DNA of 64,000 nucleotides from an uncultured Gemmatimonadales bacterium (GTDB lineage: Bacteria; Gemmatimonadota; Gemmatimonadetes; Gemmatimonadales; GWC2-71-9). The notes beneath the pieces were generated by a model. The model was not told the origin of the DNA, did not search any database, and was given only the letters and a program-made list of their open reading frames with translations. The translations under genes and the position numbers were made by a program. Location: the NCBI GenBank assembly GCA_963841505.1, contig CAWJCZ010000005.1, positions 245,333-309,332 of the forward strand, read 5' to 3'. Positions 2,872-37,777 of this stretch are shown here, piece after piece; within the stretch, counting starts at the first letter, position 1, and the number at the start of each line of letters is the position of its first letter.

Positions 2872-3599
2872 ATGCGATCACTCGGCGCGGTGGTGCTGCT
2901 GGGCGGGACCCTGGCCGGCTGTGCTTCGGGTTCCCAGAAGGTGCAGGCGATGCCGGACAGCCAGGCCGCCCCTAACACGCTTACCGCCGCTGAGCAGCGG
3001 GTCGGCTGGCGGCTCCTCTTCGACGGGCGGACCCTGGCCGGCTGGCGGCGCTACGATGCCGATTCGGCGCCGACCGGATGGCAGGCGGTGGATGGCGCGC
3101 TGACCCGGGTGAGCCGGGCGCGGGCGACATCATCACCCGCGACAGCTTCCGCAACTTCGAGCTGGTGGCTGACTGGAAGATCAGTCCCAACGGCAACAGC
3201 GGAATCCTGTATCGCGCGGCACTGGGCTCCGGCGCGATCTATTTCAGCGCCCCGGAATTCCAGGTCCTCGATGACGGCGGGCACGCCGACGGCAAGTCGC
3301 TGCTGACGTCGGCGGGATCGGTCTACGGGCTCTATCCCGCGGTGCCCGGCGTGGTCAGGCCGGTGGGCGAGTGGAACACCGCCCGAATCGTGGTGAGGGG
3401 GAACCACGTGGAGCACTGGCTCAACGGCACGCACATCGCGAGCTATGAGCTGGGAAGCCCGGAATGGAAAGCCAAAGTTGCGGCGAGCAAGTTCGCGCAG
3501 TGGCCCGAGTATGGCCAGGCGTCAGAGGGGCATATCGGGGTTCAGGACCATGGCGATGCGGTCGCGTTCCGGAACATCAAGGTCCGGGTGCTGCCCTAG
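2872..3599 (+). CDS. DUF1080 (3-keto-glycoside hydrolase/hydratase family) lipoprotein, frameshift at about 3114
   Basis: Lipobox LAGC; GWRLLFDGRTLAGW, NFEL..DWKI..NGNSGI, EFQVLD, GEWN, GHIGVQDHG..V.FRNIK. Confidence 0.9.
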
Positions 3600-3961
3600 G
3601 AAACCGGTTCGACCACCACTGCCGTGCCGTAACAGAGGACTTCGGTCACGCCCTTCATGACCTCGTTGGCGTCGTAGCGTACCCCGACGACCGCGTTTCC
3701 GCCGGTCTGTTCGGCGTGCTGGAGCATCAGCTCGAAGGCTTCCTGCCGGGCTTTCTCGCACAGCGAAACGAACGCCTCGATCCGGCCGCCAAACACGGTC
3801 TGAACGCTCGCTCCCATAAGCCCGAAGACCGATCGGGAACGCACGGTTATCCCCATCACGACCCCGAGCGATTGCACCACCTGAAATCCTTCAAAACCGA
3901 AAGTGGTGGTGGTCATGGGGTGCAGAATGCGCTGAGTGGTGGCAGAAGCGGGAAGCGGCAT
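3596..3961 (-). CDS. YbjQ / UPF0145 family protein
   Basis: LGVVMGITVRSRS, AR.EAF..M..HA...GGNAVVGVRYD, EVLCYGTAV. Start may be ATG 3916. Confidence 0.9.
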   Translation of the reverse strand: MPLPASATTQRILHPMTTTTFGFEGFQVVQSLGVVMGITVRSRSVFGLMGASVQTVFGGRIEAFVSLCEKARQEAFELMLQHAEQTGGNAVVGVRYDANEVMKGVTEVLCYGTAVVVEPVS

Positions 3962-4026
3962 GGGGGCGTCCGGTCGCTGGGAAACAGACCATCGGGAGGC
4001 CGGAATATAGGCCGTTCTGCCGGGAC

Positions 4027-4917
4027 TCAGTCGGGACGGCCCGAGGAGCGCTTTCCCAATCGGGCGGCGAATTCGTCCGGCCGCAGCAGGTAGATGCTCC
4101 CGGAGAACGCGTCGAGATCCACCACGGCGCTGCCATTGCCGAGCCGGAAGGTCTGAGAGCGCTGCCCTTTGCGCTCGCTGGTGGTGAGAGGAAAGCGAGT
4201 CTCCACGTGTCCGCTGAACAGTGATGCGGTGATGGACGCGTTGGTGCCGTCGGGAATGCCCACGAGCAAGTCTCCGCTGTGGGCCGAGAGAGCATACCGG
4301 CCGCCATCACGAATGGTTCCGCTGAACCAGATCGATCCGCTCACGGTTTCGACCTCCACCGACTTCGAATCCACGTTTCGGAGGATGACGTCCCCGCTCA
4401 CCGCTTCGACCACGACGTCGCCCTGGAGATCGGTTCCAACCACTTCCCTGGCGGTCGTGCTGAGCTCGATGCGACCCCGTGCGCCGGTCACGGTAACCTT
4501 GCCGGCCGTGGACGAGAGCTGCACCAGCTCAGTGCCCCCGTTCACCGTGATGTCGCCGTTCAGGGTTTCGACTTCGATCGGGGCGCGGACCCCATCCACC
4601 TTGATGTCGGCGTTCATGCCTTCGAGGCTCAACCCCATCCAGACCGGGACGGTCAGGGTGAAATCGGCGCGGGCCGGCATGCCATAGTCGCTCTCCACTT
4701 CGATGGAGATCACGCTCCCCGACCGGCGAATCCGTACCTCGTTCTTGCGGGAGGTCACCGCCTGAACCCGGATCTCATTCCGGTCCCACGCGCTCACCGC
4801 GATGGTGCCGGTCATCAGCTCGAGCTTGAGACGGGTGCCGGCCGAGACCGCGAACGTGGTATCGGGCGGAAGGGGGCCGGCCGTGGCGGCCAGAATCAGG
4901 AGAGCAACTGGGCTCAT
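4027..4917 (-). CDS. DUF4097 beta-strand repeat (adhesin-like) exported protein
   Basis: Signal peptide; repeated ETLNGDI / EAVSGDV / ETVSGSI / AFSGSI units; last gene of the ECF operon. Confidence 0.85.
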   Translation of the reverse strand: MSPVALLILAATAGPLPPDTTFAVSAGTRLKLELMTGTIAVSAWDRNEIRVQAVTSRKNEVRIRRSGSVISIEVESDYGMPARADFTLTVPVWMGLSLEGMNADIKVDGVRAPIEVETLNGDITVNGGTELVQLSSTAGKVTVTGARGRIELSTTAREVVGTDLQGDVVVEAVSGDVILRNVDSKSVEVETVSGSIWFSGTIRDGGRYALSAHSGDLLVGIPDGTNASITASLFSGHVETRFPLTTSERKGQRSQTFRLGNGSAVVDLDAFSGSIYLLRPDEFAARLGKRSSGRPD

Positions 4918-4927
4918 GACGTCCTCG

Positions 4928-5599
4928 TCAGGTTCGGGCGAGCGCGCCGGCAACGGCGCGGAGCAGGGTGAGCTTCCGCCGCATGTTCGCGGTCACCTGG
5001 CGGCTCAGAAACGCGTTATTCGAATCCTTCGCGATGGCGACCCGCGCCTCCGCGATCGCCGCATCGATCTTCAGGAGACTCTCATCGATCACCCGGACCG
5101 TCGCAGTATCGAGACGGTCCCGATTTTCCTCGAGGACCCGTTCGAGGTCGGTCACCGCCGACTCGTATTCGCGGTCGGCAAAAGCAGCGAGGCGAGCCGC
5201 GCTCGCCCTCGACGGCTGCACCACGTTGGGGGTCCGGTGGGTCGCCACCCAGACCGTCCCACCACTCAGAGCAGCCAGGAGCAACGACGCCGCGAGCAAC
5301 ACCGGCCAGCGGCGCCGCGACACCGGCGCCGCCGGTCGCACCAGGGCGGCTGCGTCCTGCCAGACCGCCGAGGGACGCGGCTTCGCTCCGGTGCCGAGGT
5401 GCGCCTTGATGCCGGGCCAGAGATCGCGCCCCGGGACCCGTCCCGCGTAGTTGGGAGCCGCGTCGATGATCAGCCGGAGATCGGCGAGAACCGCGCGACA
5501 CTCATCGCAGCTTTCCAGGTGAGACTCCAGGCGATTCCGCTCGAGCTCGTTGAGCTCGCGATCGAGATAGGCGGAGAGCTTCGCAGTGTACTGGTCCAT
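4928..5599 (-). CDS. Zinc-finger (zf-HC2) membrane anti-sigma factor
   Basis: LSAYLD.EL...HLESCDEC (HxxxCxxC), one TM segment, downstream of ECF sigma; ATG 5599. Confidence 0.9.
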   Translation of the reverse strand: MDQYTAKLSAYLDRELNELERNRLESHLESCDECRAVLADLRLIIDAAPNYAGRVPGRDLWPGIKAHLGTGAKPRPSAVWQDAAALVRPAAPVSRRRWPVLLAASLLLAALSGGTVWVATHRTPNVVQPSRASAARLAAFADREYESAVTDLERVLEENRDRLDTATVRVIDESLLKIDAAIAEARVAIAKDSNNAFLSRQVTANMRRKLTLLRAVAGALART

Positions 5600-23330: not shown

Positions 23331-23400
23331 AGGTGAGAGGTGAGAGGTGAGAGGTGAGAGGTGAGAGTGAAGAGGTGAGAGGTGAGAGGTGAGAAGTGAG
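23331..23400 (+). repeat. Heptamer tandem repeat (AGGTGAG) x10
   Basis: 8 perfect plus 2 variant units starting at the base after the TAA stop and filling almost the whole intergenic space. Confidence 0.95.
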
Positions 23401-23410
23401 AGAAGAGGAC

Positions 23411-26400
23411 ATGGGCAAAACACTGGAGCCACCTATGGTGAACCGCATAGCACGAACAACCCTGGTGATGGGACTGATCGCTCTCACCTCTCACTTCTCA
23501 CCTCTCACCGCCCAGGGGCCGCAGCCCGGCGGGCCTCGGCCTCGCCCCCTGCCCCTTCCCGCTGCCCGCAAGGCAACCTTCACGGCGACCAAGGGGACCT
23601 GGATGTCCCTCGACGTGAGTCCTGACGGCAAGACGGTCGTCTTCGACCTGCTCGGTGACCTCTACACTCTGCCGATCGGCGGTGGAAAGGCGACCCGGAT
23701 CACCGAGGGCATGGCGTTCGACGCCCAGCCCCGGTTCAGTCCGGATGGCGAATCCATCGTGTTCATCTCCGACCGGAGCGGTGGCGACAACGTCTGGACC
23801 ATGCGGCTCGACTTCACCGATACCACCCAGGTCACCCTCGGCAACAACAACCTGTACCTCTCTCCCGAGTGGATGCCGGACGGACAGAACGTCGTGGTCA
23901 GCCGGTCAGGCGGACTGGGCGGCGCGGCCAAGCTCGAGATGTACAACGTGAAGCGGCACAGCGGAGTGCCGATCATTCGAGGCGGCCCGACCTTCAAGAC
24001 CGTCGGTGCGGCGCCCACTCCGGACGGCCGCCAGATCTGGTTTGCCGGCCGGTTCGGCGACTGGCAGTACAACGCCCAGTTCCCCCAGTACGAGCTCTAC
24101 GTGTACGACCGGGAGCGGGGCAGCTCGACCCTCATGTCGAGCCACTATGGCTCCGGCTTCCGCCCCGCGGTCTCTCCCGACGGGAAGTATCTGGCCTATG
24201 GCAGCCGGTACAACACCCAGACCGGACTCAAGCTGCGGGACCTCTCGAGTGGCGATGAGCGCTGGCTCGCCTACCCGATTCAGCGGGATGACCAGGAATC
24301 GCGGGCGACCCTCGACGTGCTGCCGGGGTACAGCTTCACTCCCGATTCCAAATCGGTGGTGATCTCCTACGGTGGTGAGATCTGGCGGGTGCCGGTCGAG
24401 GGTGGCGCGGCCGAAAAGATCCCATTCGAAGCCGCGGTCTCCACCGACATCGGCCCCGAAGTCCGCTTCAGGTATCGGGTGGATACCAGCGCGATGGTGA
24501 TCGCGCGGCAGATTCGAAGCCCGGTGACTTCGCCCGACGGGAAGAAGCTCGCCTACACCGCCTTCGATCGGATGTACATCACCGATCTCGCGACTGGCGT
24601 GGCGCGCCGGGTCACCAAGGCGGACATCGGCGAGTATCACCCGGTCTGGTCTCCCGACGGGCTCTGGCTCGCCTTCGTGACGTGGGACGATTCGGCCGGC
24701 GGCAACATCATCAGGGTGCGAGGCGATGGAACAGGCCAGCCCCAGCAGCTCACCCGGGTCGCCGCGCTCTATTACAACCTGGCATGGTCACCGGACGGGC
24801 AGCGGATCGTCGCGACCCGCGGAGCGGCGCGCGATCTCAAACGTGCGCCCGACACCTTCTTCGGTCCGCAGGGCGGCGAATTCGTCTGGGTCCCTTCGGC
24901 AGGCGGCGCGGTCAACCCCATCGCGCCGACCGGATCGCGGGACTTTGCCCACTTCCGCAAGGACCAGCCAACCCGGATCTACGCCTACAGCCCCCTCGAG
25001 GGACTGGTCTCGTTCCGGTGGGACGGGACCGACGTGAAGCAGCACGTCATCGTGCGCGGCCCGCCTTCTCCGGTGGGTGGCGTTTTCGGCGACATGCTAC
25101 ACCCCGGGGAGCTGACCGTCCTGCCGCGGCGGGTCTTCCCGCTCATCGCCGACCCCTTCGAGAGTCAGCCCGCCGAAGCCGGCGGGCCGCCCACCGCCGA
25201 CCTGGTGGTGATGTCGCCCCAGGGAAATCGCGCCCTGGCCCAGGTGGGAAGCCACATCTACATGGTGGATATCCCGACCGTGGGCGGGCCGGTACCGAAC
25301 GTGTCGGTGACGTCGGGCGGGGGCCCGGTCCGGGTGCGTCAGCTTACCGATATCGGGGGAGAATTCCCGAGCTGGAGCGCCGATGGGAGCCACATCACCT
25401 GGGCGATCGGCAATGCCTACGTCTCCTATGACTTGAGCAGAGTCGAAGCACTCGAGGACAGCGTGGCGCGGGAGAATCGCGGTACCATCGGCCGGGCCAT
25501 CCGGATCCGGCAGCTTCTCGACACGTTGCGAATGACCCGGCGAACGGTGGACAGCCTCAACCGGATTCCGTCGCCGATTGCAGACTCTCTGCTGGCAAAG
25601 CTCAACCGACTGCTGGCGGATTCGGTGCAGGCTCGAGCCGACTCCCTGCTCCGGGCCGCCGATATCATCCGGGCCCGGGCATTCGCCGCGCACAACAACG
25701 CCGATTCGGTGCGGGCCGGCCTCGACAGCGTGCGCCCCGACACGGTGACGTACAAGCCGGTCGAACGCCGGATCATGGTGCAGCTCCCGCGCGACGTTCC
25801 CAGAGGTACCGTGGTGCTTCGGGGCGGCCGGGTGCTCACGATGCGGGGCAATGAGATCCTGGAGAACGCCGACATCGTGGTGACCGACAACCGGATCGTC
25901 GCCGTCGGCAAGCGTGATTCAGTGAGTATCCCCGCGGGGGCGCGCATCATCGACGTCACCGGCAAGACGCTCACGCCCGGGTTCGTCGATACCCACTACC
26001 ACACCCAGTGGCTGGTGCCGGAAATCCATCCCCGGCAAGCCTGGCAGTACCTCGCGACGCTCGCCTACGGGGTGACCACGACCCGCGACCCGCAGACCGG
26101 CTCGACCGACGTGCTGAGCTATCAGGATCGGGTTGCGATCGGGGCGATGGTGGGCCCCCGGATCTACTCGACCGGCCCGGGTGTCTTCATCGACGAGAAC
26201 ATCCGAGACTCGGCGCACGCCGTCAGCGTGCTCAAGCGCTACAGTCAGTACTACGGCACCAACACCCTCAAGATGTACATGGCGGGCAACCGGCAGCAGC
26301 GCCAGTGGATCGTGCAGGCGGCCCGGATTCTCGGCATCATGCCGACCACCGAAGGCGGTCTCGACTACAAGCTCGACATGACCCACGTGGAAGACGGGTA

Positions 26401-27061
26401 TTCCGGGGTGGAGCACGCCCTGCCGATCGTGCCGAAATTCGAGGACGTGGTGAAGTTCTTCAAGGCCGCCGGCACCACCAACACACCGACCCTCATCGTG
26501 TCGTACGGCGGGCCGTTCGCGGAGAATTATTTCTACGAGAAGGAGGAAGTCCACGACAACGCCAAGCTCCGCCGGTTCGTGCCGGAGGAGAGCCTCGATT
26601 CACGGACTCGCCGGCGGGCCTTCTGGGCGCTCGATGAAGAACAGGTCTTCCCCAAGCACGCCGAATTCGTGAAGATGATGCTGGCCGACTCGGCCCGAGT
26701 GGGGGTGGGCAGCCACGGCCAGATCCAGGGGGTGGGCTACGACTGGGAGCTCTGGGCCATGGCATCGGGCGGCGCGCCGACCCACGACTTGCTGCGCGCG
26801 GCGACCATCCTCGGCGCCGAGGCGATCGGACTGGGAACCGATATCGGAACCATCGAAAAGGGCAAGCTGGCCGACATTCTGGTATTCGACGCCGACCCGC
26901 TCCAGGACATCAGGAACGTGGCGCGGATCAAATATGTGATGAAGGACGGCCGGGTCTACGAAGGCGAGACGCTGAACGAAGTGTGGCCGATGGAGCGTCC
27001 GCTGCCGACCCCACCATGGCGAAAGCTCGGTCCCGACGGGGTCCGCGCAGGAGTGCGCTAA
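23411..27061 (+). CDS. Exported PD40 beta-propeller plus amidohydrolase protein (paralog 2, with about 100-aa insertion)
   Basis: Collinear with paralog 1 ([34 protein letters not shown]); extra helical segment at about 25430-25750. Confidence 0.92.
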   Translation: MGKTLEPPMVNRIARTTLVMGLIALTSHFSPLTAQGPQPGGPRPRPLPLPAARKATFTATKGTWMSLDVSPDGKTVVFDLLGDLYTLPIGGGKATRITEGMAFDAQPRFSPDGESIVFISDRSGGDNVWTMRLDFTDTTQVTLGNNNLYLSPEWMPDGQNVVVSRSGGLGGAAKLEMYNVKRHSGVPIIRGGPTFKTVGAAPTPDGRQIWFAGRFGDWQYNAQFPQYELYVYDRERGSSTLMSSHYGSGFRPAVSPDGKYLAYGSRYNTQTGLKLRDLSSGDERWLAYPIQRDDQESRATLDVLPGYSFTPDSKSVVISYGGEIWRVPVEGGAAEKIPFEAAVSTDIGPEVRFRYRVDTSAMVIARQIRSPVTSPDGKKLAYTAFDRMYITDLATGVARRVTKADIGEYHPVWSPDGLWLAFVTWDDSAGGNIIRVRGDGTGQPQQLTRVAALYYNLAWSPDGQRIVATRGAARDLKRAPDTFFGPQGGEFVWVPSAGGAVNPIAPTGSRDFAHFRKDQPTRIYAYSPLEGLVSFRWDGTDVKQHVIVRGPPSPVGGVFGDMLHPGELTVLPRRVFPLIADPFESQPAEAGGPPTADLVVMSPQGNRALAQVGSHIYMVDIPTVGGPVPNVSVTSGGGPVRVRQLTDIGGEFPSWSADGSHITWAIGNAYVSYDLSRVEALEDSVARENRGTIGRAIRIRQLLDTLRMTRRTVDSLNRIPSPIADSLLAKLNRLLADSVQARADSLLRAADIIRARAFAAHNNADSVRAGLDSVRPDTVTYKPVERRIMVQLPRDVPRGTVVLRGGRVLTMRGNEILENADIVVTDNRIVAVGKRDSVSIPAGARIIDVTGKTLTPGFVDTHYHTQWLVPEIHPRQAWQYLATLAYGVTTTRDPQTGSTDVLSYQDRVAIGAMVGPRIYSTGPGVFIDENIRDSAHAVSVLKRYSQYYGTNTLKMYMAGNRQQRQWIVQAARILGIMPTTEGGLDYKLDMTHVEDGYSGVEHALPIVPKFEDVVKFFKAAGTTNTPTLIVSYGGPFAENYFYEKEEVHDNAKLRRFVPEESLDSRTRRRAFWALDEEQVFPKHAEFVKMMLADSARVGVGSHGQIQGVGYDWELWAMASGGAPTHDLLRAATILGAEAIGLGTDIGTIEKGKLADILVFDADPLQDIRNVARIKYVMKDGRVYEGETLNEVWPMERPLPTPPWRKLGPDGVRAGVR
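23483..23510 (-). repeat. Inverted copy of the heptamer repeat (CTCACCT x4) inside signal-peptide coding sequence
   Basis: ctcacct-ctcactt-ctcacct-ctcaccg, encoding LTSHFSPLT. Confidence 0.9.
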
Positions 27062-29846: not shown

Positions 29847-30012
29847 CGAGCGTTCGTGGGCAATCTAATCTGGTGACCCGGTTGACCGGAGGCGCAGCAG
29901 ACGCCAGAATTGAGACACGCGCTTGTCCCGGTACCCCCGTGAACTTACTTTAAGCCATTATCCTGCATGGGGATGAAGAAGCGCACATCCCCCCTCCGCG
30001 ACGCGAGGTTAC

Positions 30013-31218
30013 GTGCCGACCAAGGCCGTCCACACCGACATCGCGCTCTTCGAAAAGTGTCGGCAGTACACCCGGGCCGACGAGGTCAAGGCCGCCGGGC
30101 TGTATCCGTATTTCCGCCCCATCTCCGAATCGGAAGACACCGTCGTTGTCATCGAGGGCCAGCGCCGCATCATGCTGGGCTCGAACAATTATCTCGGCCT
30201 GACCCACCACCCCCGGGTGATCGAGGCGGCCCGCAATGCCCTGGAGCGATATGGGTCCGGTTGCACCGGCAGCCGTTTTCTGAACGGCACCCTGGATCTG
30301 CATCTCCAGCTCGAGGCGGCCCTCGCCGAGTTTCTCGGCAAGGAAGACTGCATCGTGTTTTCGACCGGATACAATGCCAACGTCGGACTCATCTCCGGTT
30401 TGATCGGCCGCAAGGATGTCGTGTTTCTCGACAAGCTCGACCACGCCTCCATCGTGGATGGCGCCAAGATGTCGGACGGGCAGACCATCCGCTTCAATCA
30501 CGGCGACCTGGCCGCGCTCGACCGGAAGCTCGAGGAGCACCCGGATGCTGGCAAGATGGTGATCGTGGACGGCATCTACTCGATGGAAGGGGACATCGCC
30601 GACGTGGCCGGGCTGCTCAAGGCCTGCCGGAAGCATGGGGCTGCCCTGGCCATCGACGATGCCCACTCGATCGGGGTGCTCGGGCCCCGGGGTGACGGCA
30701 CCGCGGCGCACTTCGGACTGAGCGACGACGTGGATATCATCGCGGGAACATTTTCCAAGTCGCTCGCGTCCATTGGCGGGTTCGTCACCGCCTCCCGCTC
30801 GATCATCAACTACCTGCGGCACCACAGCCGCGCGCTGATCTTCACCGCCTCCCTGCCTCCCGCCAACACCGCGGGCGTGCTGGCGGCCTTGCAGGTGCTC
30901 CAGGAAGACGGGGAGCGGCGGGAGCAGCTCTGGGCCAACACCCGACGGCTGCTGGACGGGTTCCGCGCGTTCGGGTTCGATACCGGTCCTTCCGAAACTC
31001 CCATTGTCCCGATTCTGATCGGCCCGCTGGAGCGCACCCTGATCATGTGGCGCCAGGTGTTCGACGCGGGAATCTTCACCAACCCGGTCGTTCCTCCCGC
31101 GGTACCGCCCTCGATGTGCCGCCTCCGGACCAGTGTCATGGCCACCCATACCCCGGACCAGATCGATTTCGCGGTCGAGACGATCGGCACCATCGGGAAA
31201 CAGCTCGGCGTCATCTAG
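30013..31218 (+). CDS. spt: Serine palmitoyltransferase-like PLP alpha-oxoamine synthase
   Basis: GSNNYLGL, GSRFLNGT, DHASIVDG, DDAH, GTFSKS (SPT-type PLP-lysine motif rather than GKA of KBL/BioF); no bio genes adjacent. Confidence 0.8.
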   Translation: MPTKAVHTDIALFEKCRQYTRADEVKAAGLYPYFRPISESEDTVVVIEGQRRIMLGSNNYLGLTHHPRVIEAARNALERYGSGCTGSRFLNGTLDLHLQLEAALAEFLGKEDCIVFSTGYNANVGLISGLIGRKDVVFLDKLDHASIVDGAKMSDGQTIRFNHGDLAALDRKLEEHPDAGKMVIVDGIYSMEGDIADVAGLLKACRKHGAALAIDDAHSIGVLGPRGDGTAAHFGLSDDVDIIAGTFSKSLASIGGFVTASRSIINYLRHHSRALIFTASLPPANTAGVLAALQVLQEDGERREQLWANTRRLLDGFRAFGFDTGPSETPIVPILIGPLERTLIMWRQVFDAGIFTNPVVPPAVPPSMCRLRTSVMATHTPDQIDFAVETIGTIGKQLGVI

Positions 31219-31253
31219 GCGCGGCGAACCGGGAACCCGGCAGAGGGGGTTGA

Positions 31254-32390
31254 GTGCACGGTGAGGTAACGGTCGGACCGGTTCGCTCTTCGCTCGATCT
31301 CCGCCAGTTCATCGATCTTCCTTATCGGCTCTACGCCAACGATCCCCTGTGGGCCGCACCCCTCCGGCGCGACGTCCACACCCTGCTCTCCCCCCGCAAG
31401 AACCCGTTTTTCGAGCACGCCGAAGCCGAGTATTTCCTGGCCCGCCGCGACGGCAGGGTGGTCGGACGGGTCGCGGCGATCGCGAACCGCCTGCACAACG
31501 AATTCCACGGGGACCAGGTCGGGTTCTTCGGGTTTTTCGAGACCGAACCCGACCAGAGGATCGCCGCCGCCCTGCTGGACACCGCGGCCGGGTGGCTCCG
31601 GAGCCGGGGATTCGACACCATGAGGGGGCCCGCGTCCTTCTCCACCAACGATGAGTGCGGCCTCCTGGTGGACGGGTTCGACACCCCGCCGGTCATCATG
31701 ATGCCCCATAACCCGCGGGGCTATGTGGCCCTGCTGGAAGGCGCCGGGTTTCACAAGGCCAAGGATCTGCTGGTCTACCAGGGCGGCAGCATGGAGCGGG
31801 AGGTCCCGATGCCGGAGCGGCTCACCCGTGCGGTGGAGCTGATCCGGAAGCGGATGGGGCTCACCCTCCGGAAGCTCAACCTCAAGGACTTCGCCGGCGA
31901 GGTGGACCGGATCAAGGGACTCTACAATCGGAGCTGGGAGCGCAACTGGGGATTCATTCCGCTCACCGACCACGAAATTGATCACCTGGCCACCCAGTTC
32001 AAGCCGGTGGTGGTGCCTGACTACGCCCCGTTTCTCGAGAAGGACGGCGAACCGATCGGCTTCGCCCTCGCGCTCCCCGACCTCAACGTGTCGTTCCGGC
32101 GGAATCGCCAGGGACGCTTCCTGCCCGGCCTCGCGCGGCTGCTCTTCGATCTCAAAACCGGCCGGATCAACCGGATGCGGATCCTCCTTCTCGGAATTCT
32201 GCCGGAGTACCGCGGCAAGGGCCTCGATGCCCTGCTCTACCACTGGATCTGGGAGAACGGGAACCGGAAGGGCATCCATTGGGGAGAAGCGGGCTGGATC
32301 CTGGAGGACAATCCCGCCATGAACTCGGCCCTCCTCAAGATCGGCTTCACCGTCTACAAGACCTACCGGCTGTACGATCGCGGGTTATGA
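31254..32390 (+). CDS. GNAT-fold acyltransferase, bacterial ceramide synthase (bCerS)-like
   Basis: NPFFEHAE..FLA.R.G.VVGR.AAI, GFFGFFE, GLLVDGFD, MMPHNP, NWGFIP, LPDLN, WILEDN; directly after spt. Confidence 0.78.
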   Translation: MHGEVTVGPVRSSLDLRQFIDLPYRLYANDPLWAAPLRRDVHTLLSPRKNPFFEHAEAEYFLARRDGRVVGRVAAIANRLHNEFHGDQVGFFGFFETEPDQRIAAALLDTAAGWLRSRGFDTMRGPASFSTNDECGLLVDGFDTPPVIMMPHNPRGYVALLEGAGFHKAKDLLVYQGGSMEREVPMPERLTRAVELIRKRMGLTLRKLNLKDFAGEVDRIKGLYNRSWERNWGFIPLTDHEIDHLATQFKPVVVPDYAPFLEKDGEPIGFALALPDLNVSFRRNRQGRFLPGLARLLFDLKTGRINRMRILLLGILPEYRGKGLDALLYHWIWENGNRKGIHWGEAGWILEDNPAMNSALLKIGFTVYKTYRLYDRGL

Positions 32391-33361
32391 GGGCTCTGGT
32401 CACTGGCGCGACCGGGTTCGTGGGAAGCCATCTCATCGATACGCTCCTCGAGGCGGGGGACCAGGTGACCGCCCTGGTCCGGACCCCGAAGAAGGCGGAG
32501 GGCCTTGCCGAGCGCGGGGTGACCCTCATTTCCGGCGACCTCCATGACGACGCGGCGCTGGAACGGTCGGTGGGCGGCCAGGACGTCATCTACCATTCTG
32601 CCGGGCTGGTTGCGGCGCGTGACGATGCGACCTTCCTGGCCATCAACCGGGAAGGCACCGCCCGGATCCGGAAAGCAGCCGAGCAATCCGGCTCCCCCCG
32701 CTTCGTTTTCGTCTCCTCGCTCGCCGCCGCGGGGCCGGCTCCCCGGGGGGGCCGGCGCCGCGACGACGAGCCAGCGGAGCCGATTACCGGATACGGACGC
32801 AGCAAGCTTGCCGGAGAGGTGGTGGTCCGGCAGAGCAGGCTCCCCTGGATCATCGTGCGCCCGCCCGCGGTCTATGGCCCGCGCGATGCCGAGTTCTTCC
32901 GGCTCTTCAAGGCAGCACGACGGGGGATGCTGCCGGTCTTTGGAGACGGCGGCCAGGAGCTTTCGCTGGTGTACGTGAAGGACCTGGCCCGCGCCCTGGC
33001 CGCCCTGGCGCGGAGCGAAGAGGCCTTGGGAGGCACCTGGTACCCGTGCCATCGGGAAGTCCTCACCAGCCGCGATGTCGCACTCACGATCGGACGGGCA
33101 ATGGGGCGCGCCGTCCGCATCCTCCCGCTCCCGGTCTGGATCGGAGGCGCCGCGCTGTCACTGACCGGGCTCGCCGCGCGTCTTATCGGGGGCACCACGC
33201 TGCTGACCCCCGACAAGGGGAAGGAGCTCTTCGCCCCAGCGTGGACCTGCGATCCCGCTCCGCTCGAGCGGGTAACCGGAGGCGCCTGGAGCGCGGAATA
33301 CGATCTGGCCGAGGGAACCCGGGTGACTGCCGGATGGTACCGGGAGGCCGGGTGGCTTTAG
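32387..33361 (+). CDS. Extended SDR / NAD-dependent epimerase family, ceramide reductase (CerR)-like by context
   Basis: VTGATGFVG, VSSLAA, YGRSK, RPPAVYGP; ATGA overlap with the GNAT gene. Confidence 0.8.
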   Translation: MRALVTGATGFVGSHLIDTLLEAGDQVTALVRTPKKAEGLAERGVTLISGDLHDDAALERSVGGQDVIYHSAGLVAARDDATFLAINREGTARIRKAAEQSGSPRFVFVSSLAAAGPAPRGGRRRDDEPAEPITGYGRSKLAGEVVVRQSRLPWIIVRPPAVYGPRDAEFFRLFKAARRGMLPVFGDGGQELSLVYVKDLARALAALARSEEALGGTWYPCHREVLTSRDVALTIGRAMGRAVRILPLPVWIGGAALSLTGLAARLIGGTTLLTPDKGKELFAPAWTCDPAPLERVTGGAWSAEYDLAEGTRVTAGWYREAGWL

Positions 33362-34245
33362 CCCCCCAGGACCGGCTCCGCCCACTCGACTGGGGCGTGC
33401 TAGGCTACGTGGCAATCGCCTCCGTGGTTGCGATCGCCCGGCTGGGGCGGATCCCCGGAGTCGGATGGTCGCTGGTTGCCAATGGTTTCGCGGTGGCGCT
33501 GGTCCTGCTGGTCCGGAGTCCCGGGTTAGGACGGTTCGGCCGCGGGTTCCGGGAGGTCTATCCCCTGATCCTGGTGGTGATCTTCTACGGGGCGCTCGAC
33601 CTCCTGACCGGCCATGGAGGGATTCCCACCCACGAGTCCACCATCCAGCATTGGGAGCTGGTGGTGTTCGGCGGGCAGGTCAGTCATACCTGGTGGGAAC
33701 GGTATCCGAGCCCCTTCTGGAGCACGCTCCTCCACGCGGTGTATGCGAGCTATTACCTGGTGGTGGCCGCCGGACCGATCTGGTTTCTCTTGAAGCGGGA
33801 CTCTCCCAATCTGCGCCGCACCGTGGCCGCCATCTCGGCGACCTACGGGATCTGCTTCGTCATTTTTCTGCTGTACCCCGTGGCCGGGCCGAACTATGAG
33901 TTCCCCCGCCCCGCGGCCGAATTCATCGCCAACCTGCCGGCACGGCTGGTGTACAGCCTGCTCCAGCGAGGGAGCTCCTACGGTGCCGCCTTTCCCTCAT
34001 CCCACGTGGCCGCCGCGCTGACCGCTGCCCTGATCACCCTGAAAGGGGCGCCCCGGCTCGGCCTGGTGCTGCTGGTGCCGGCTGTCCTCCTGCCGTTCGC
34101 GGTGGTCTATACCCAGATGCACTACGCCATGGATGCCATCGGCGGGGTGATCCTGGGCCTCGCGGTGTTTGGGGCGGCGGAACTGATCGATCGGTCGACC
34201 AAGGCAGAACGAAAACGGGCAGGGACCGAAGCCCCTGCCCGCTGA
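33352..34245 (+). CDS. PAP2-family membrane phosphotransferase, Aur1/IPT1-like
   Basis: Multiple TMs, YPVAGP, AAFPSSHV, MHYAMDAIGG; GTG 33352 after GGGAGG, overlapping the SDR stop. Confidence 0.85.
   Translation: MALAPQDRLRPLDWGVLGYVAIASVVAIARLGRIPGVGWSLVANGFAVALVLLVRSPGLGRFGRGFREVYPLILVVIFYGALDLLTGHGGIPTHESTIQHWELVVFGGQVSHTWWERYPSPFWSTLLHAVYASYYLVVAAGPIWFLLKRDSPNLRRTVAAISATYGICFVIFLLYPVAGPNYEFPRPAAEFIANLPARLVYSLLQRGSSYGAAFPSSHVAAALTAALITLKGAPRLGLVLLVPAVLLPFAVVYTQMHYAMDAIGGVILGLAVFGAAELIDRSTKAERKRAGTEAPAR
34212..34241 (-). terminator. Intrinsic terminator for the blue-copper genes
   Basis: CGGGCAGGG...CCCTGCCCG 9-bp stem followed by TTTT on the minus strand, 20 nt after the stop. Confidence 0.7.
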
Positions 34246-34262: not shown

Positions 34263-34727
34263 TTAGGGCGCGACAGTGATCTTGCCGTGCATCCCCATCG
34301 CCATATGGGGAGTGCAGGTGAACTTGTACTCGCCGGCGGGGGCGTTCGCGAAGCTGATCGCGAGGGTTGCGCCGGGATCGAGCAGGAGCTCGGAGCTCAG
34401 CGGACCGATCGGATTCGGCATCTGCGGCTCGATCAATTCCTTGGCCCCGGCTGGAATGCTGTCGGCCCAGAACGCGACGTTGTGCGGACCCCCACTCACG
34501 TTATGGAACACGACTCGGTCTCCCGGCTTCACCGTGACTTCCGCGGGGTCGAACTTGTAGGTCGAGGCCCCTTCGAGAACCATGTTGATATCGTGGGTGG
34601 TGCCTCCGGACGGATTCGCCGGGGCGGACGCCTGGGCGGTGTCCCCGGGTGCCGCTTCGGCCTGCTTCTCGCCACCGCCACACGCCACCATCACCGCCAA
34701 CCCAACCAATGCCGAAATCGTCCTCAT
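34263..34727 (-). CDS. Plastocyanin-type blue copper lipoprotein (copy A)
   Basis: Lipobox MVAC, low-complexity linker, PHNV, CTPHMAMGM (H...C-x2-H-x4-M). Confidence 0.93.
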   Translation of the reverse strand: MRTISALVGLAVMVACGGGEKQAEAAPGDTAQASAPANPSGGTTHDINMVLEGASTYKFDPAEVTVKPGDRVVFHNVSGGPHNVAFWADSIPAGAKELIEPQMPNPIGPLSSELLLDPGATLAISFANAPAGEYKFTCTPHMAMGMHGKITVAP

Positions 34728-34809
34728 GCCAAATGGCCTCCAGCCAGGAAGTGATCGAGAATGACACCAGGGAAGACGGGACGAAAATACACGGGGTCAC
34801 TGTCAAGAA

Positions 34810-35283
34810 CTAGGGAGAAACCGTGATGGTCCCCCGCATCCCCATCGCCAGGTGGGGAGTACAGTAGAACTTGTAGGTCCCCGCCGGGGCCCCCGCAAAT
34901 GAAAGGGTGACCGTGCGCCCGGGATCGGTCAGAAGCTCACTCTGGAGCGGACCGATCGGATTGGGAATTTGCGGTTCCAGCACCTGCTGGGCGCCCGCCG
35001 GAATACTGTCGGGCCAGAATGAAATATTATGGGGGAATCCGCTCATGTTGTGAAAGACGACCCGGTCCCCGACTTTGATATCCAGGGTTGACGGGACGTA
35101 TTTGTAGTCCGTCGCACCCTCCAGGACCATGTTCACGTCATGCGTTGCTCCCCCTCCACCCGCGGGAACGCTCGTGGTGTCACGAGTCGCGGCGGTTGAA
35201 TCCCCTCCCACCCCTGGGGTCTTCTCGCCACCGCCGCAACCAGCGAGGAGTCCCACACCGAGCACTGCGCTGAGCAACCGCAT
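34810..35283 (-). CDS. Plastocyanin-type blue copper lipoprotein (copy B)
   Basis: Lipobox LAGC, PHNI, CTPHLAMGM; shares WxDSIPAGA and PNPIGPL with copy A. Confidence 0.93.
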   Translation of the reverse strand: MRLLSAVLGVGLLAGCGGGEKTPGVGGDSTAATRDTTSVPAGGGGATHDVNMVLEGATDYKYVPSTLDIKVGDRVVFHNMSGFPHNISFWPDSIPAGAQQVLEPQIPNPIGPLQSELLTDPGRTVTLSFAGAPAGTYKFYCTPHLAMGMRGTITVSP

Positions 35284-35351
35284 GGGCCAATCTCCGTTCA
35301 AGACGTCCTTGGGGACGAAGCTCGGGGCGGTACGATCACTATCTTTGCTCG

Positions 35352-36270: not shown

Positions 36271-36780
36271 ATGGATGATCTGGAGCGGCTGTATAAGACA
36301 CACTATCCGGCAGTGGTCCGGTTCCTGTATCGGAAAATCTGGGACCCGGATCGAGCCGAAGACCTGGCGCAAGAGGTGTTCATTCGCGCCATGGCACACC
36401 GGCCCGAAAAGCCCCGGGCCTGGATCTTTGCGGTCGCCGCAAATCTGGCACGGGATGAGGCGCGAGCGGCGATTCGCCGCAAGAAGCACCTCACCCTGTT
36501 GAAGGATGACCCGATCCCGCTGTCCACGCCGGAACCTTCGGCGGACGAGGCAGTCGATCGGGAAGAACGATGGGAGAAGGTCACCGAGGCACTCGCCGAG
36601 TTGACGGAGCGGGACCGCGAAGTGCTGTTGCTGTGGGACGCGGGGCTCAGCTATCCGGAGATCGCGGCGCATACGGGGCTTGCCGTCGGGGCGGTCGGGA
36701 CGACGCTGGCGCGGGCCCGGAAACGGTTGATAGAGGCGCATGACAGAATGGATCAACAGGTCCGAGCGGCACGTTCCTGA
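36271..36780 (+). CDS. ECF RNA polymerase sigma factor
   Basis: RAEDLAQEVF, AWIFAVAANLARD, GLSYPEIA, VGTTLARAR; AAAGGAGG RBS. Confidence 0.93.
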   Translation: MDDLERLYKTHYPAVVRFLYRKIWDPDRAEDLAQEVFIRAMAHRPEKPRAWIFAVAANLARDEARAAIRRKKHLTLLKDDPIPLSTPEPSADEAVDREERWEKVTEALAELTERDREVLLLWDAGLSYPEIAAHTGLAVGAVGTTLARARKRLIEAHDRMDQQVRAARS

Positions 36781-37777
36781 AGAGGAGCACCACGCGTATT
36801 TCGACCAGGCCCTGAGCCGGTCGCAGTGCGCTGAAATCGAAACCCATCTCTCCCACTGCCCGAAATGCCAGGCGCAGCGGGCTGAGGTGGCGATGTTGCG
36901 TGATCGGACGACCGCATTGCTGGCACGGTTGAGTCCCCACCCTGTCATCGTTCCACCGCCCTTCCAGACCCTCCTCGATCGTCGAAGCCGGCAACTCCGG
37001 TTCGCGATGTGGCGGGTCAGGCTCGAGCGGGCTGGACTGTGGGCGGCGGGGATCGCGGCCGCGACGGGCATCGGCTGGATGGCCCGGACCGTTCTCGATC
37101 CTCATCGCACGGCGAGCGCCTCGGCGCCCATCGTCGAGGTGCAGCCGCCGGCCGCCCCTGCTCCCAGGGTGCTGGCCATGACGCCGGTGGACAGCGAACA
37201 CGCCAACCTGGACCGAGCCAGGCCTGCCCCGATTCCGGAAACCGAGCCCCCAGTGAGCGGGGGCGGCCGGCGCTCCAGTGGGCCTTCTGCGGCCGCGCTG
37301 CCGAGCAACCAGCTGGCGGCCTCGGTGGTCGATCTCGGTATCGCTCCCGCGGAATCCACGGCGGTTCGCTCGAACGCCGCCGAGTCGGGCGACTTCTTTG
37401 ATCGGGTCTGGCGAGTCATCCAGTGGGATGACGCGGTGAAGACGCTCGCCGGAGGGCTTCCCTACGTTGAGGGCCTCCCGGTGAGAGGGGTACAAATCCG
37501 GCCGGGCGAGCGGGGTGAGCGCCCCACCGTGATCGTGACTCAGGAAGTTTCCGGCGGAGAGCTCATTTCGGCGATCGAGGGCCCGGTGGATCAGGTCAAC
37601 CAGGTCCTCCGTCGTCAGGCGAAGGACGTGCATAACAGTGACGCCACCCGGACTCCGCCCGACTACGTGGACGATCCGGCGGGTGGGCTCCGGCGGACCC
37701 TTCGAGTGCTCACGATCGCGGGCAAGTTGTCGGTGGATTCCTTGAACGCACTGGCGAGAGTCGCGACGATTCGCTGA
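36740..37777 (+). CDS. zf-HC2 anti-sigma factor
   Basis: HAYFDQAL...HLSHCPKC, single TM, Pro-rich linker. Confidence 0.85.
   Translation: MTEWINRSERHVPEEEHHAYFDQALSRSQCAEIETHLSHCPKCQAQRAEVAMLRDRTTALLARLSPHPVIVPPPFQTLLDRRSRQLRFAMWRVRLERAGLWAAGIAAATGIGWMARTVLDPHRTASASAPIVEVQPPAAPAPRVLAMTPVDSEHANLDRARPAPIPETEPPVSGGGRRSSGPSAAALPSNQLAASVVDLGIAPAESTAVRSNAAESGDFFDRVWRVIQWDDAVKTLAGGLPYVEGLPVRGVQIRPGERGERPTVIVTQEVSGGELISAIEGPVDQVNQVLRRQAKDVHNSDATRTPPDYVDDPAGGLRRTLRVLTIAGKLSVDSLNALARVATIR

Follow-up and report, generated by a model that had tools for sequence, protein, structure and literature searches.

Can four adjoining genes of an uncultured Gemmatimonadales bacterium build a complete phosphosphingolipid? 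The question is raised by positions 30013-34245 of the stretch of DNA analyzed here (the window, 64,000 nucleotides in length), which represents bases 245333-309332 of contig 5 in a 3.28 Mb assembly of 13 contigs that is 84% complete (G000); the GC content is ~65-69%. An earlier reading, made from the letters of the window and called here the sequence-only reading, described four co-oriented genes, the last three with overlapping start and stop codons, and all four open reading frames were found at these coordinates on the + strand (Table 1). Pfam matches identify their products as an alpha-oxoamine synthase (Aminotran_1_2, 5.4e-56), a GNAT protein (Acetyltransf_1, 2.7e-08), an extended short-chain dehydrogenase/reductase (SDR; Epimerase, 1e-37) and a PAP2-type membrane protein (PAP2_3, 9.6e-20). 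On the combined grounds of homology, structure prediction and gene linkage, we consider the locus to be a probable self-contained operon for de novo phosphosphingolipid synthesis, and place the probability of this reading at about 60%.

The proposed pathway has four steps. The first gene product, a serine palmitoyltransferase (Spt), would condense serine with an acyl-CoA to give 3-ketosphinganine; acyl-CoA is the suggested donor because the closest relative of the enzyme is a Bacteroidota-type Spt and because a dedicated acyl carrier protein (ACP) gene is lacking. The YghO-like GNAT, as the counterpart of bCerS/CerS of Caulobacter, would add the N-acyl chain, and the extended SDR, as the counterpart of CerR, would reduce the 3-keto group to yield dihydroceramide. 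In the last step an eight-helix PAP2_3 enzyme, acting at the periplasmic face with a His-His-Asp triad (H218, H257, D261), would take a phospho-head group from a glycerophospholipid (phosphatidylinositol, phosphatidylethanolamine or phosphatidylglycerol) by way of a phospho-histidine, with release of diacylglycerol. The head group would then be passed to the C1 hydroxyl of ceramide, as in the mechanism proposed for yeast Aur1.

The linkage of the four genes is the most direct evidence that they form a unit. Searching GTDB species representatives with an alignment of the PAP2 protein gave at least 598 relatives, a clade whose nearest neighbors are in Gemmatimonadota and Acidobacteriota, and the loci of the best 80 were compared. 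All are in Gemmatimonadales-type metagenome-assembled genomes except one labelled Bacillota. The four genes stand in order in 65 of the 80 loci, with the GNAT gene adjoining spt; the other 15 reach the end of their contig 5′ of the PAP2 gene, at a distance shorter than one operon, and no locus contradicts the four-gene arrangement. With 65 complete copies and every remaining locus truncated by the end of its contig, the arrangement lies far beyond chance. A mobile or recently transferred cassette was considered and rejected, as the cupredoxin genes downstream of the operon are conserved in 73 of the 80 loci, which argues for vertical inheritance. The locus labelled 'Bacillota bacterium' (L025, JBLMWC010000126.1) carries the same four-gene operon, with Spt at 79% and PAP2 at 49% identity; mis-binning or mislabelling of the contig is more probable here than transfer.

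The picture was similar in 201 genomes sampled from the phylum; the tallies include four unpublished genomes (G057, G182, G097 and G157), and no claim hangs on those four alone. A PAP2 relative (E ≤ 1e-10) was found in 112 genomes, among them 89 of the 96 in the window's own family and 3 of the 38 in the next family, and an Spt match (E ≤ 1e-90) was found in 125. In 99 of these 125 the PAP2 gene lies downstream of spt on the same strand, at a distance of ~2.1-2.3 kb in 95 genomes and 1.2-1.5 kb in four. Once five weak, KBL-like Spt matches had been removed, 109 genomes held both genes, three held PAP2 only, 11 held Spt only and 78 held neither. Related genomes are not independent, and this tally is therefore descriptive and carries no statistical test. 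The linkage also survives rearrangement. Two further families retain the gene order of the window, whereas in another family three genomes show SDR-Spt-GNAT-PAP2 (L093-L095, from G180, G167 and G027), with PAP2 retained. In L092 (G155) the order is Spt-SDR-PAP2, with no GNAT gene within the 8-kb stretch, which stops at a contig end. The sequence-only reading had made its proposal depend on synteny of the PAP2 gene in relatives, and across these loci and genomes the gene is syntenic.

The product of the fourth gene matches Pfam PAP2_3 at 71.6 bits, well over the gathering cut-off of 27, and the generic PAP2 family at 1.4e-07; PAP2_3 is also matched by all 29 relatives in our alignment, five of which show weak secondary matches to PAP2_C, a sphingomyelin-synthase-type family. 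PAP2_3 is not a specific marker, as a six-frame genome search also matches 11 of 14 control genomes, including E. coli. The three motifs that the sequence-only reading had likened to those of Aur1 are all present in the product, as YPVAGP, AFPSSH and MHYAMDAIGG. Residues P176, V177, A178, G179, P180, A213, F214, P215, S216, S217, H218, M256, H257 and Y258 are largely invariant or nearly so among the 29 sequences; H218 and H257 are invariant, and D261 is present in at least 90%. By the positive-inside rule, the termini and the Arg-rich short loops would be cytoplasmic and the catalytic loops periplasmic.

An AlphaFold model built on the 29-sequence alignment (pLDDT 88.2, pTM 0.87) has eight long helices. 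In a Foldseek search the first match was yeast Aur1 (9vj4_A; E 3.2e-4, TM 0.60/0.63, 283 columns) and the second another Aur1 structure (9ivc_A; E 2.3e-3), followed by B. subtilis PgpB, SMSr and LpxE with TM values of 0.43, 0.40 and 0.40. In alignment with VIA-align, 9vj4_A gave a Z score of 16.9 over 254 residues (model positions 8-283, root-mean-square deviation 3.9) and 9ivc_A a score of 16.7 over 275 residues, compared with 14.5 for LpxE (162 residues, model positions 92-279), 14.0 for PgpB and 11.0 for SMSr (201 residues). The three N-terminal helices of the model are covered by Aur1 only, and the matches to LpxE, PgpB and G6PC1 are to the core, residues 92-287. In the 29-sequence profile alignment H218, H257 and D261 fall on Aur1 residues H255, H294 and D298, a triad reported to be essential by mutagenesis (PMC13133130). 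In its whole-chain structural match, its place in PAP2_3 territory, its triad and its lack of a C3 arginine, the protein thus resembles yeast Aur1, the catalytic subunit of inositol-phosphoceramide synthase (9vj4, 9ivc), from which it would differ in residing in a bacterial inner membrane and not in the Golgi. The LPT fold is shared with SMS1/2 and SMSr (PDB 8ijq), a family that transfers a head group to ceramide. The structural match to SMSr is the weaker one, and catalysis by SMSr reportedly involves additional residues not present in Aur1 (PMC13133130).

These structural data bear directly on the best-surviving alternative, in which genes 1-3 make ceramide and gene 4 encodes a hydrolytic enzyme, either a lipid phosphate phosphatase with ceramide-1-phosphate or the phosphate of a sphingoid base as its substrate, or else a generic C55-PP (undecaprenyl diphosphate) or PGP (phosphatidylglycerophosphate) phosphatase riding along with the operon. 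The majority of PAP2 proteins are hydrolytic and the core fold does match LpxE and PgpB, at Z scores of 14-14.5, but the N-terminal three helices match Aur1 alone. The protein has weak matches to two NCBIfam undecaprenyl-diphosphatase models, yet these score far under their cut-offs (NF008813, 29.7 bits against 229; NF047884, 22.9 against 250). LpxE and B. subtilis PgpB have an arginine in the C3 motif of the phosphatases (SRxxxxxHxxxD), six positions ahead of its histidine; the residue aligned with it here is V251, a valine invariant in all 29 sequences, and Aur1 has a threonine at this position. The C1 motif of PAP2 phosphatases is KxxxxxxRP, which the phosphotransferases of the superfamily are not known to carry; in the 29-sequence alignment the loop that joins helices 3 and 4 (residues ~87-120) has no Lys or Arg that is invariant or close to it. 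The operon contains no kinase that could make a phosphomonoester substrate, and tight linkage to spt across the class, rearrangements included, is not expected of a housekeeping phosphatase. The His-His-Asp triad itself occurs in both hydrolases and transferases (PMC13133130). Weighing these points, we regard a hydrolase as unlikely. The sequence-only reading had offered head-group transfer and dephosphorylation side by side; the evidence favors the former over the latter.

Less probable still, in our estimation, is a transferase with another acceptor or direction, in which the PAP2_3 protein would be a PDCT-type phospholipid:diacylglycerol exchanger or a phospholipase-C-like enzyme and ceramide would not be its substrate. 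Five of the 29 relatives weakly match AtPDCT1_2, the PDCT transferase family (best E 0.003), and enzymes of the SMS family are reported to hydrolyze glycerophospholipids in the absence of ceramide (PMC7988496). In some genomes additional paralogues of PAP2 lie apart from spt, and several genomes have two or three. Against this, Spt and PAP2 occur together in 109 genomes and PAP2 by itself in three, the position of the PAP2 gene at the end of the ceramide operon is fixed, and the top structural match is a ceramide-bound inositol-phosphoceramide synthase. One of the additional copies has a partner of its own: L099 (G176 contig 5) has at 3018-5439 a second SDR-PAP2 pair away from spt, with 37% and 30% identity to the proteins of the window, followed by a partial SDR match.

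Among NCBIfam models the product of gene 1 matches Spt-CFB best (NF047600, 523.6 bits), ahead of BioF (389) and KBL (376). In the PDB the best match is the Sphingobacterium SPT (3a2b/8guh; 423 bits, E 1.1e-125, residues 12-398), followed by the Sphingomonas SPT (307 bits), KBL-type enzymes (271-295), cysteate acyltransferase (221), BioF (208), ALAS (191-202) and CqsA (140). The GTFSKS motif with the Schiff-base lysine is identical to the aligned stretch of the Sphingobacterium enzyme. Only one other alpha-oxoamine synthase is encoded in the genome, at a separate location, and it is a KBL (454.5 bits); because the genome thus has a KBL of its own, we rejected a housekeeping KBL or BioF role for the operon enzyme. 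The sequence-only reading would have been undone by a synthase that clustered with BioF or KBL, and in both rankings the enzyme groups instead with characterized Spt. These comparisons place the product of gene 1 among the Spt-type enzymes, with the Bacteroidota type as its nearest relative, and it is predicted to condense serine. That the operon makes no sphingolipid, the synthase using glycine, alanine or cysteate to form some other N-acylated amino-alcohol or a sulfonolipid-type lipid, is very improbable: the enzyme does score under the NCBI Spt equivalog cut-off, substrate choice among alpha-oxoamine synthases is not reliably readable from sequence and a cysteate acyltransferase is among the PDB matches, but 423 bits to a characterized SPT is almost twice the score of the cysteate enzyme and well over those of KBL and BioF, and the GNAT and SDR are homologous to the partners of Spt in proven loci.

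The GNAT protein is harder to place by domain searches than by its company. Pfam matches are weak and occur in both halves, Acetyltransf_1 (residues 48-122) with the value given above and Acetyltransf_7 (281-366) at 0.0011; no NCBIfam family was matched, and a sequence search of the PDB returned nothing below E = 0.69. The family to which it belongs, of proteins ~375 residues long, is very large, with 1638 representatives at E ≤ 1e-30 among 1.84 billion, and its neighbors in the protein atlas are GNAT clusters of about 375-385 residues. A tblastn search of plasmid records retrieved members with names, which are 35-44% identical to the query and cover at least 98% of it. Among them are an N-acetyltransferase from the sphingolipid locus of Sphingomonas parapaucimobilis, which is 37% identical over its full length (385 columns, E 1e-79), and E. 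coli YghO, encoded beside an Spt locus and 35% identical. Two natural Spt-GNAT fusions link the two domains in single chains: P0135 (780 residues) matches Spt-CFB at 470 bits over residues 16-398 and the GNAT over residues 420-780, and the second, P0217, has 648 residues. The cluster of P0135 has three full-length members from separate sources. Another long relative, P0122 (784 residues), resembles the window GNAT in two GNAT-like stretches (38% identity, the best being 413-781); it matched no NCBIfam family at E ≤ 1e-5 and may be a tandem duplication of a bCerS-like unit. We take gene 2 to be the probable counterpart of Caulobacter bCerS/CerS, matched to it by locus position.

The SDR carries a GATGFVG motif and Y-x3-K, its YGRSK aligning with the corresponding stretch of the Sphingomonas enzyme, and has a further Pfam match to NAD_binding_10 (1.5e-29). 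It is 37% identical (E 1e-45) to the Sphingomonas SDR whose gene adjoins those for ACP and Spt and 33% identical (E 3e-35) to the E. coli counterpart. Gene 3 is accordingly placed, again through its position in the reference loci, as the likely counterpart of Caulobacter CerR.

The two reference loci carry this correspondence. In Sphingomonas parapaucimobilis the order is SDR, ACP, alpha-oxoamine synthase, an ATP-binding protein, lptF, lptG, a desaturase and the N-acetyltransferase. In E. coli (L010, NZ_MG591698.1, 4525-10122) lptF and lptG, which are second copies, are followed on the other strand by the alpha-oxoamine synthase, ACP, SDR and a fatty acyl-AMP ligase, and then by yghO. Both synthases score above the NCBI Spt cut-offs (E. 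coli, 599.9 against 500; Sphingomonas, 833.4 against 670). This order, SDR-ACP-Spt ... lptF-lptG ... GNAT, mirrors that of Caulobacter, where aasR (CC_1165), cerR (CC_1164), acpR (CC_1163) and spt (CC_1162) are followed by lptF2 (CC_1156), lptG2 (CC_1155) and cerS (CC_1154) (PMC11324152). The Caulobacter locus has also been described as extending from ccna_01212 to ccna_01226, with the S. wittichii and E. coli UTI89 loci displayed alongside (bioRxiv 10.64898/2026.04.12.717747); the layout of NZ_MG591698.1 matches the UTI89 locus of that study.

Compared with the Caulobacter ceramide pathway, the Gemmatimonadales locus has the same three enzyme families clustered with spt (Spt; bCerS/CerS, CC_1154 = CCNA_01212; CerR, CC_1164), and it differs in several respects. 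The genes form a single tight four-gene operon, the Spt is closest to the Bacteroidota type, and acpR, aasR and the LptF2/G2 paralogues are absent from the locus. Dedicated ACP and acyl-CoA synthetase genes are reported to co-occur with spt in alpha-, beta- and gamma-Proteobacteria (PMC9386255). In the window, as the sequence-only reading had observed, no ACP or acyl-ACP synthetase gene adjoins the operon; the flanking genes examined encode an M6 peptidase and cupredoxins. Pfam and gene context likewise revealed no kinase or cytidylyltransferase gene within the four-gene operon, and the head group would not be added by the kinase/cytidylyl route of cpgA-D.

For the donor of the head group, the rest of the genome offers a candidate. 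It encodes a myo-inositol-phosphate synthase whose gene adjoins one for a CDP-alcohol phosphatidyltransferase, and phosphatidylinositol is for this reason a possible donor. Since the pair is near-universal in the phylum, the product could be inositol-phosphoceramide. We also considered whether the synthase tracks the operon and could serve in that way as a clue to the donor. This idea was rejected, the synthase being present in 190 of the 201 genomes regardless of Spt and PAP2.

A number of observations weigh against a phosphosphingolipid operon of the kind proposed, or limit how far it can be pressed. The similarity of gene 4 to Aur1 is one of fold more than of sequence. A search of the PDB with the 29-sequence profile did place yeast Aur1 first, but at E = 0.13, which is not significant, and identity in the structural alignments is 14-17%; with the single sequence, LpxE and PgpB were the only matches (E 0.056-0.11) and Aur1 was not retrieved. 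The Z margin of Aur1 over the phosphatase LpxE is modest (16.9 against 14.5, ~2.4), and because hydrolases share the His-His-Asp triad, it cannot tell transfer from hydrolysis. The Aur1 resemblance noted in the sequence-only reading therefore stands for Pfam family, fold and catalytic triad, and not for sequence similarity. Gene 1 falls short of the NCBIfam cut-offs for NF047600 (523.6 bits against 640) and NF047599 (418 against 500), models that are lineage-specific (CFB, beta- and alpha-proteobacteria) in a set that has none for Gemmatimonadota. The SDR begins straight with its Rossmann motif and a signal peptide is not evident by eye, whereas Caulobacter CerR has been reported to be periplasmic (PMC11087976). 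Among the 120 genomes with a strong Spt match, 11 lack a PAP2 gene detectable with the window query, and the head-group step is thus not obligatory. The inositol-phosphate synthase, present with or without the operon, is uninformative on the donor because its presence does not track the operon. In the window's own genome, moreover, the myo-inositol-1-phosphate synthase is split in two frames (G000 contig 10, L009 3976-5991, - strand). NAD_binding_5 positions 1-239 lie in the reading frame at 4028-5566, and the remainder, together with Inos-1-P_synth, lies in that at 3976-4629; a gene for a 224-residue CDP-alcohol phosphatidyltransferase is directly 5′ of the split synthase, and elsewhere in the phylum the open frame of the synthase is at least ~370 residues long. 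The split reflects either an assembly error or a pseudogene.

The four gene assignments are supported by every computational test that was run. What proved overstated in the sequence-only reading is its premise of novelty. It held that step 4 would differ from the routes known in bacteria, and this is contradicted by BT_1522 of B. thetaiotaomicron, a published inositol-phosphoceramide synthase that was found by homology to AUR1 and whose deletion abolishes or nearly abolishes inositol-phosphoceramide (PMC9246714, PMC8791184). With BT_1522 already in the literature, the claim of a route new to bacteria fails. BT_1522 is likewise a bacterial LPT/PAP2-type enzyme, proposed to supply dihydroceramide with a phospho-head group taken from a glycerophospholipid, but it is encoded in an inositol-lipid cluster with myo-inositol-phosphate synthase and PIP synthase and not with spt, whereas the Gemmatimonadales gene ends a ceramide operon; this comparison is one of gene context. 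A tblastn search of the plasmid collection with the PAP2 protein gave no match, and although a Prevotella replicon was included, this is not a test of BT_1522.

The ceramide triad, for its part, is a published bacterial pathway, and Spt-like genes have been extended to 38-40 phyla by Ding et al. 2024 (PMC11334938). The string 'gemmatimonad' is absent from the main text of that paper, the supplements, which may list the phylum, being outside the check. Our literature search found no report of sphingolipids in Gemmatimonadota, with the supplementary lists of Stankeviciute 2022 and Ding 2024 outside its range, no paper on this PAP2_3 clade at the end of a ceramide operon and no PAP2-type bacterial ceramide-phosphoethanolamine synthase. 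What appear to be new here are the lineage, the distinct PAP2_3 clade and the fixed place of that clade in closing the ceramide operon. A bolder proposal is that gene 4 founds a clade of bacterial ceramide head-group transferases, separate from BT_1522 and hard-wired to the ceramide operon, such that most Gemmatimonadales, a group abundant in soil, would make phosphoceramides with inositol, ethanolamine or glycerol head groups at the periplasmic face of the inner membrane, with no kinase/CDP-alcohol step; some Acidobacteriota might do likewise. We advance this tentatively, as a possibility whose chances fall slightly below even.

The layout of the locus is summarized in Table 1. The genes on either side are unrelated to the four and lie on the opposite strand, an M6 peptidase gene upstream and two cupredoxin genes downstream, which suggests that the operon is a stand-alone unit. 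The GTG start of the PAP2 gene gives a 10-nt overlap with the SDR stop and is preceded by a GGGAGG Shine-Dalgarno-like run; this form is the one in the protein collection (P0001), and the alternative ATG lies 28 nt before the SDR stop. A consensus scan of the operon region found two sigma-70-like sites, compared with 0.3 expected from shuffled sequences. On the - strand, a scan for terminator-like structures picked out the hairpin that closes the PAP2 gene, a consensus match that is followed by a T-rich tail on that strand. It may terminate the convergent cupredoxin transcript, and could conceivably also play a role for the + strand operon.

Table 1. Genes and candidate signals of the proposed phosphosphingolipid operon (positions in the window).
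Feature	Position	Strand	Remarks
spt (alpha-oxoamine synthase)	30013..31218	+	401 aa, GTG start, GTFSKS motif
Putative bCerS/CerS-type GNAT, YghO-like family	31254..32390	+	378 aa; start 35 nt past the stop of the alpha-oxoamine synthase gene
Putative cerR-type extended SDR reductase	32387..33361	+	324 aa; ATG overlaps the GNAT TGA as ATGA
PAP2_3/LPT-fold membrane enzyme, proposed ceramide phospho-head-group transferase	33352..34245	+	297 aa; alternative ATG 33334 (303 aa)
Sigma-70-like promoter match	29882..29910	+	consensus match only, 9/12 hexamer positions; ~100 nt 5′ of spt
GC-rich hairpin, 13 pairs	34214..34243	.	3′ end of PAP2 gene, between convergent PAP2 and cupredoxin genes

Several features of the surroundings may be recorded. 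The tandem cupredoxin genes (plastocyanin/azurin-type) occupy window positions 34263-35301 on the - strand, convergent with the operon, and are those conserved at this place in relatives. At 23396-27061 (+) a 1221-residue open reading frame encodes PD40/WD40-like beta-propeller repeats and, at the C-terminal end, an amidohydrolase domain. A frame at 36740-37777 (+) begins with an N-terminal zf-HC2 anti-sigma-type zinc finger, and the long - strand frames that overlap it are without a Pfam match. Among the sequencing runs listed as containing the stretch there is no RNA run; the list consists of only four soil DNA runs from one study, each with a small share.

If the reading of this locus as a phosphosphingolipid operon is true, the sphingolipid producers would come to include Gemmatimonadota, a phylum that ranks among the more abundant in soil, and Aur1-type head-group transfer among bacteria would not be limited to the host-associated Bacteroidota. 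Should the product be inositol-phosphoceramide, this would be a second bacterial lineage with that lipid. Four genes would then suffice for a complete phosphosphingolipid, with no dedicated ACP, kinase or cytidylyltransferase. So compact an operon would be a handy cassette for heterologous reconstitution and for tying environmental sphingolipid signals to their producers. Being small, bacterial and without a known Kei1-like partner, none having been sought, the PAP2_3 protein may also offer a possible model for the antifungal target Aur1.

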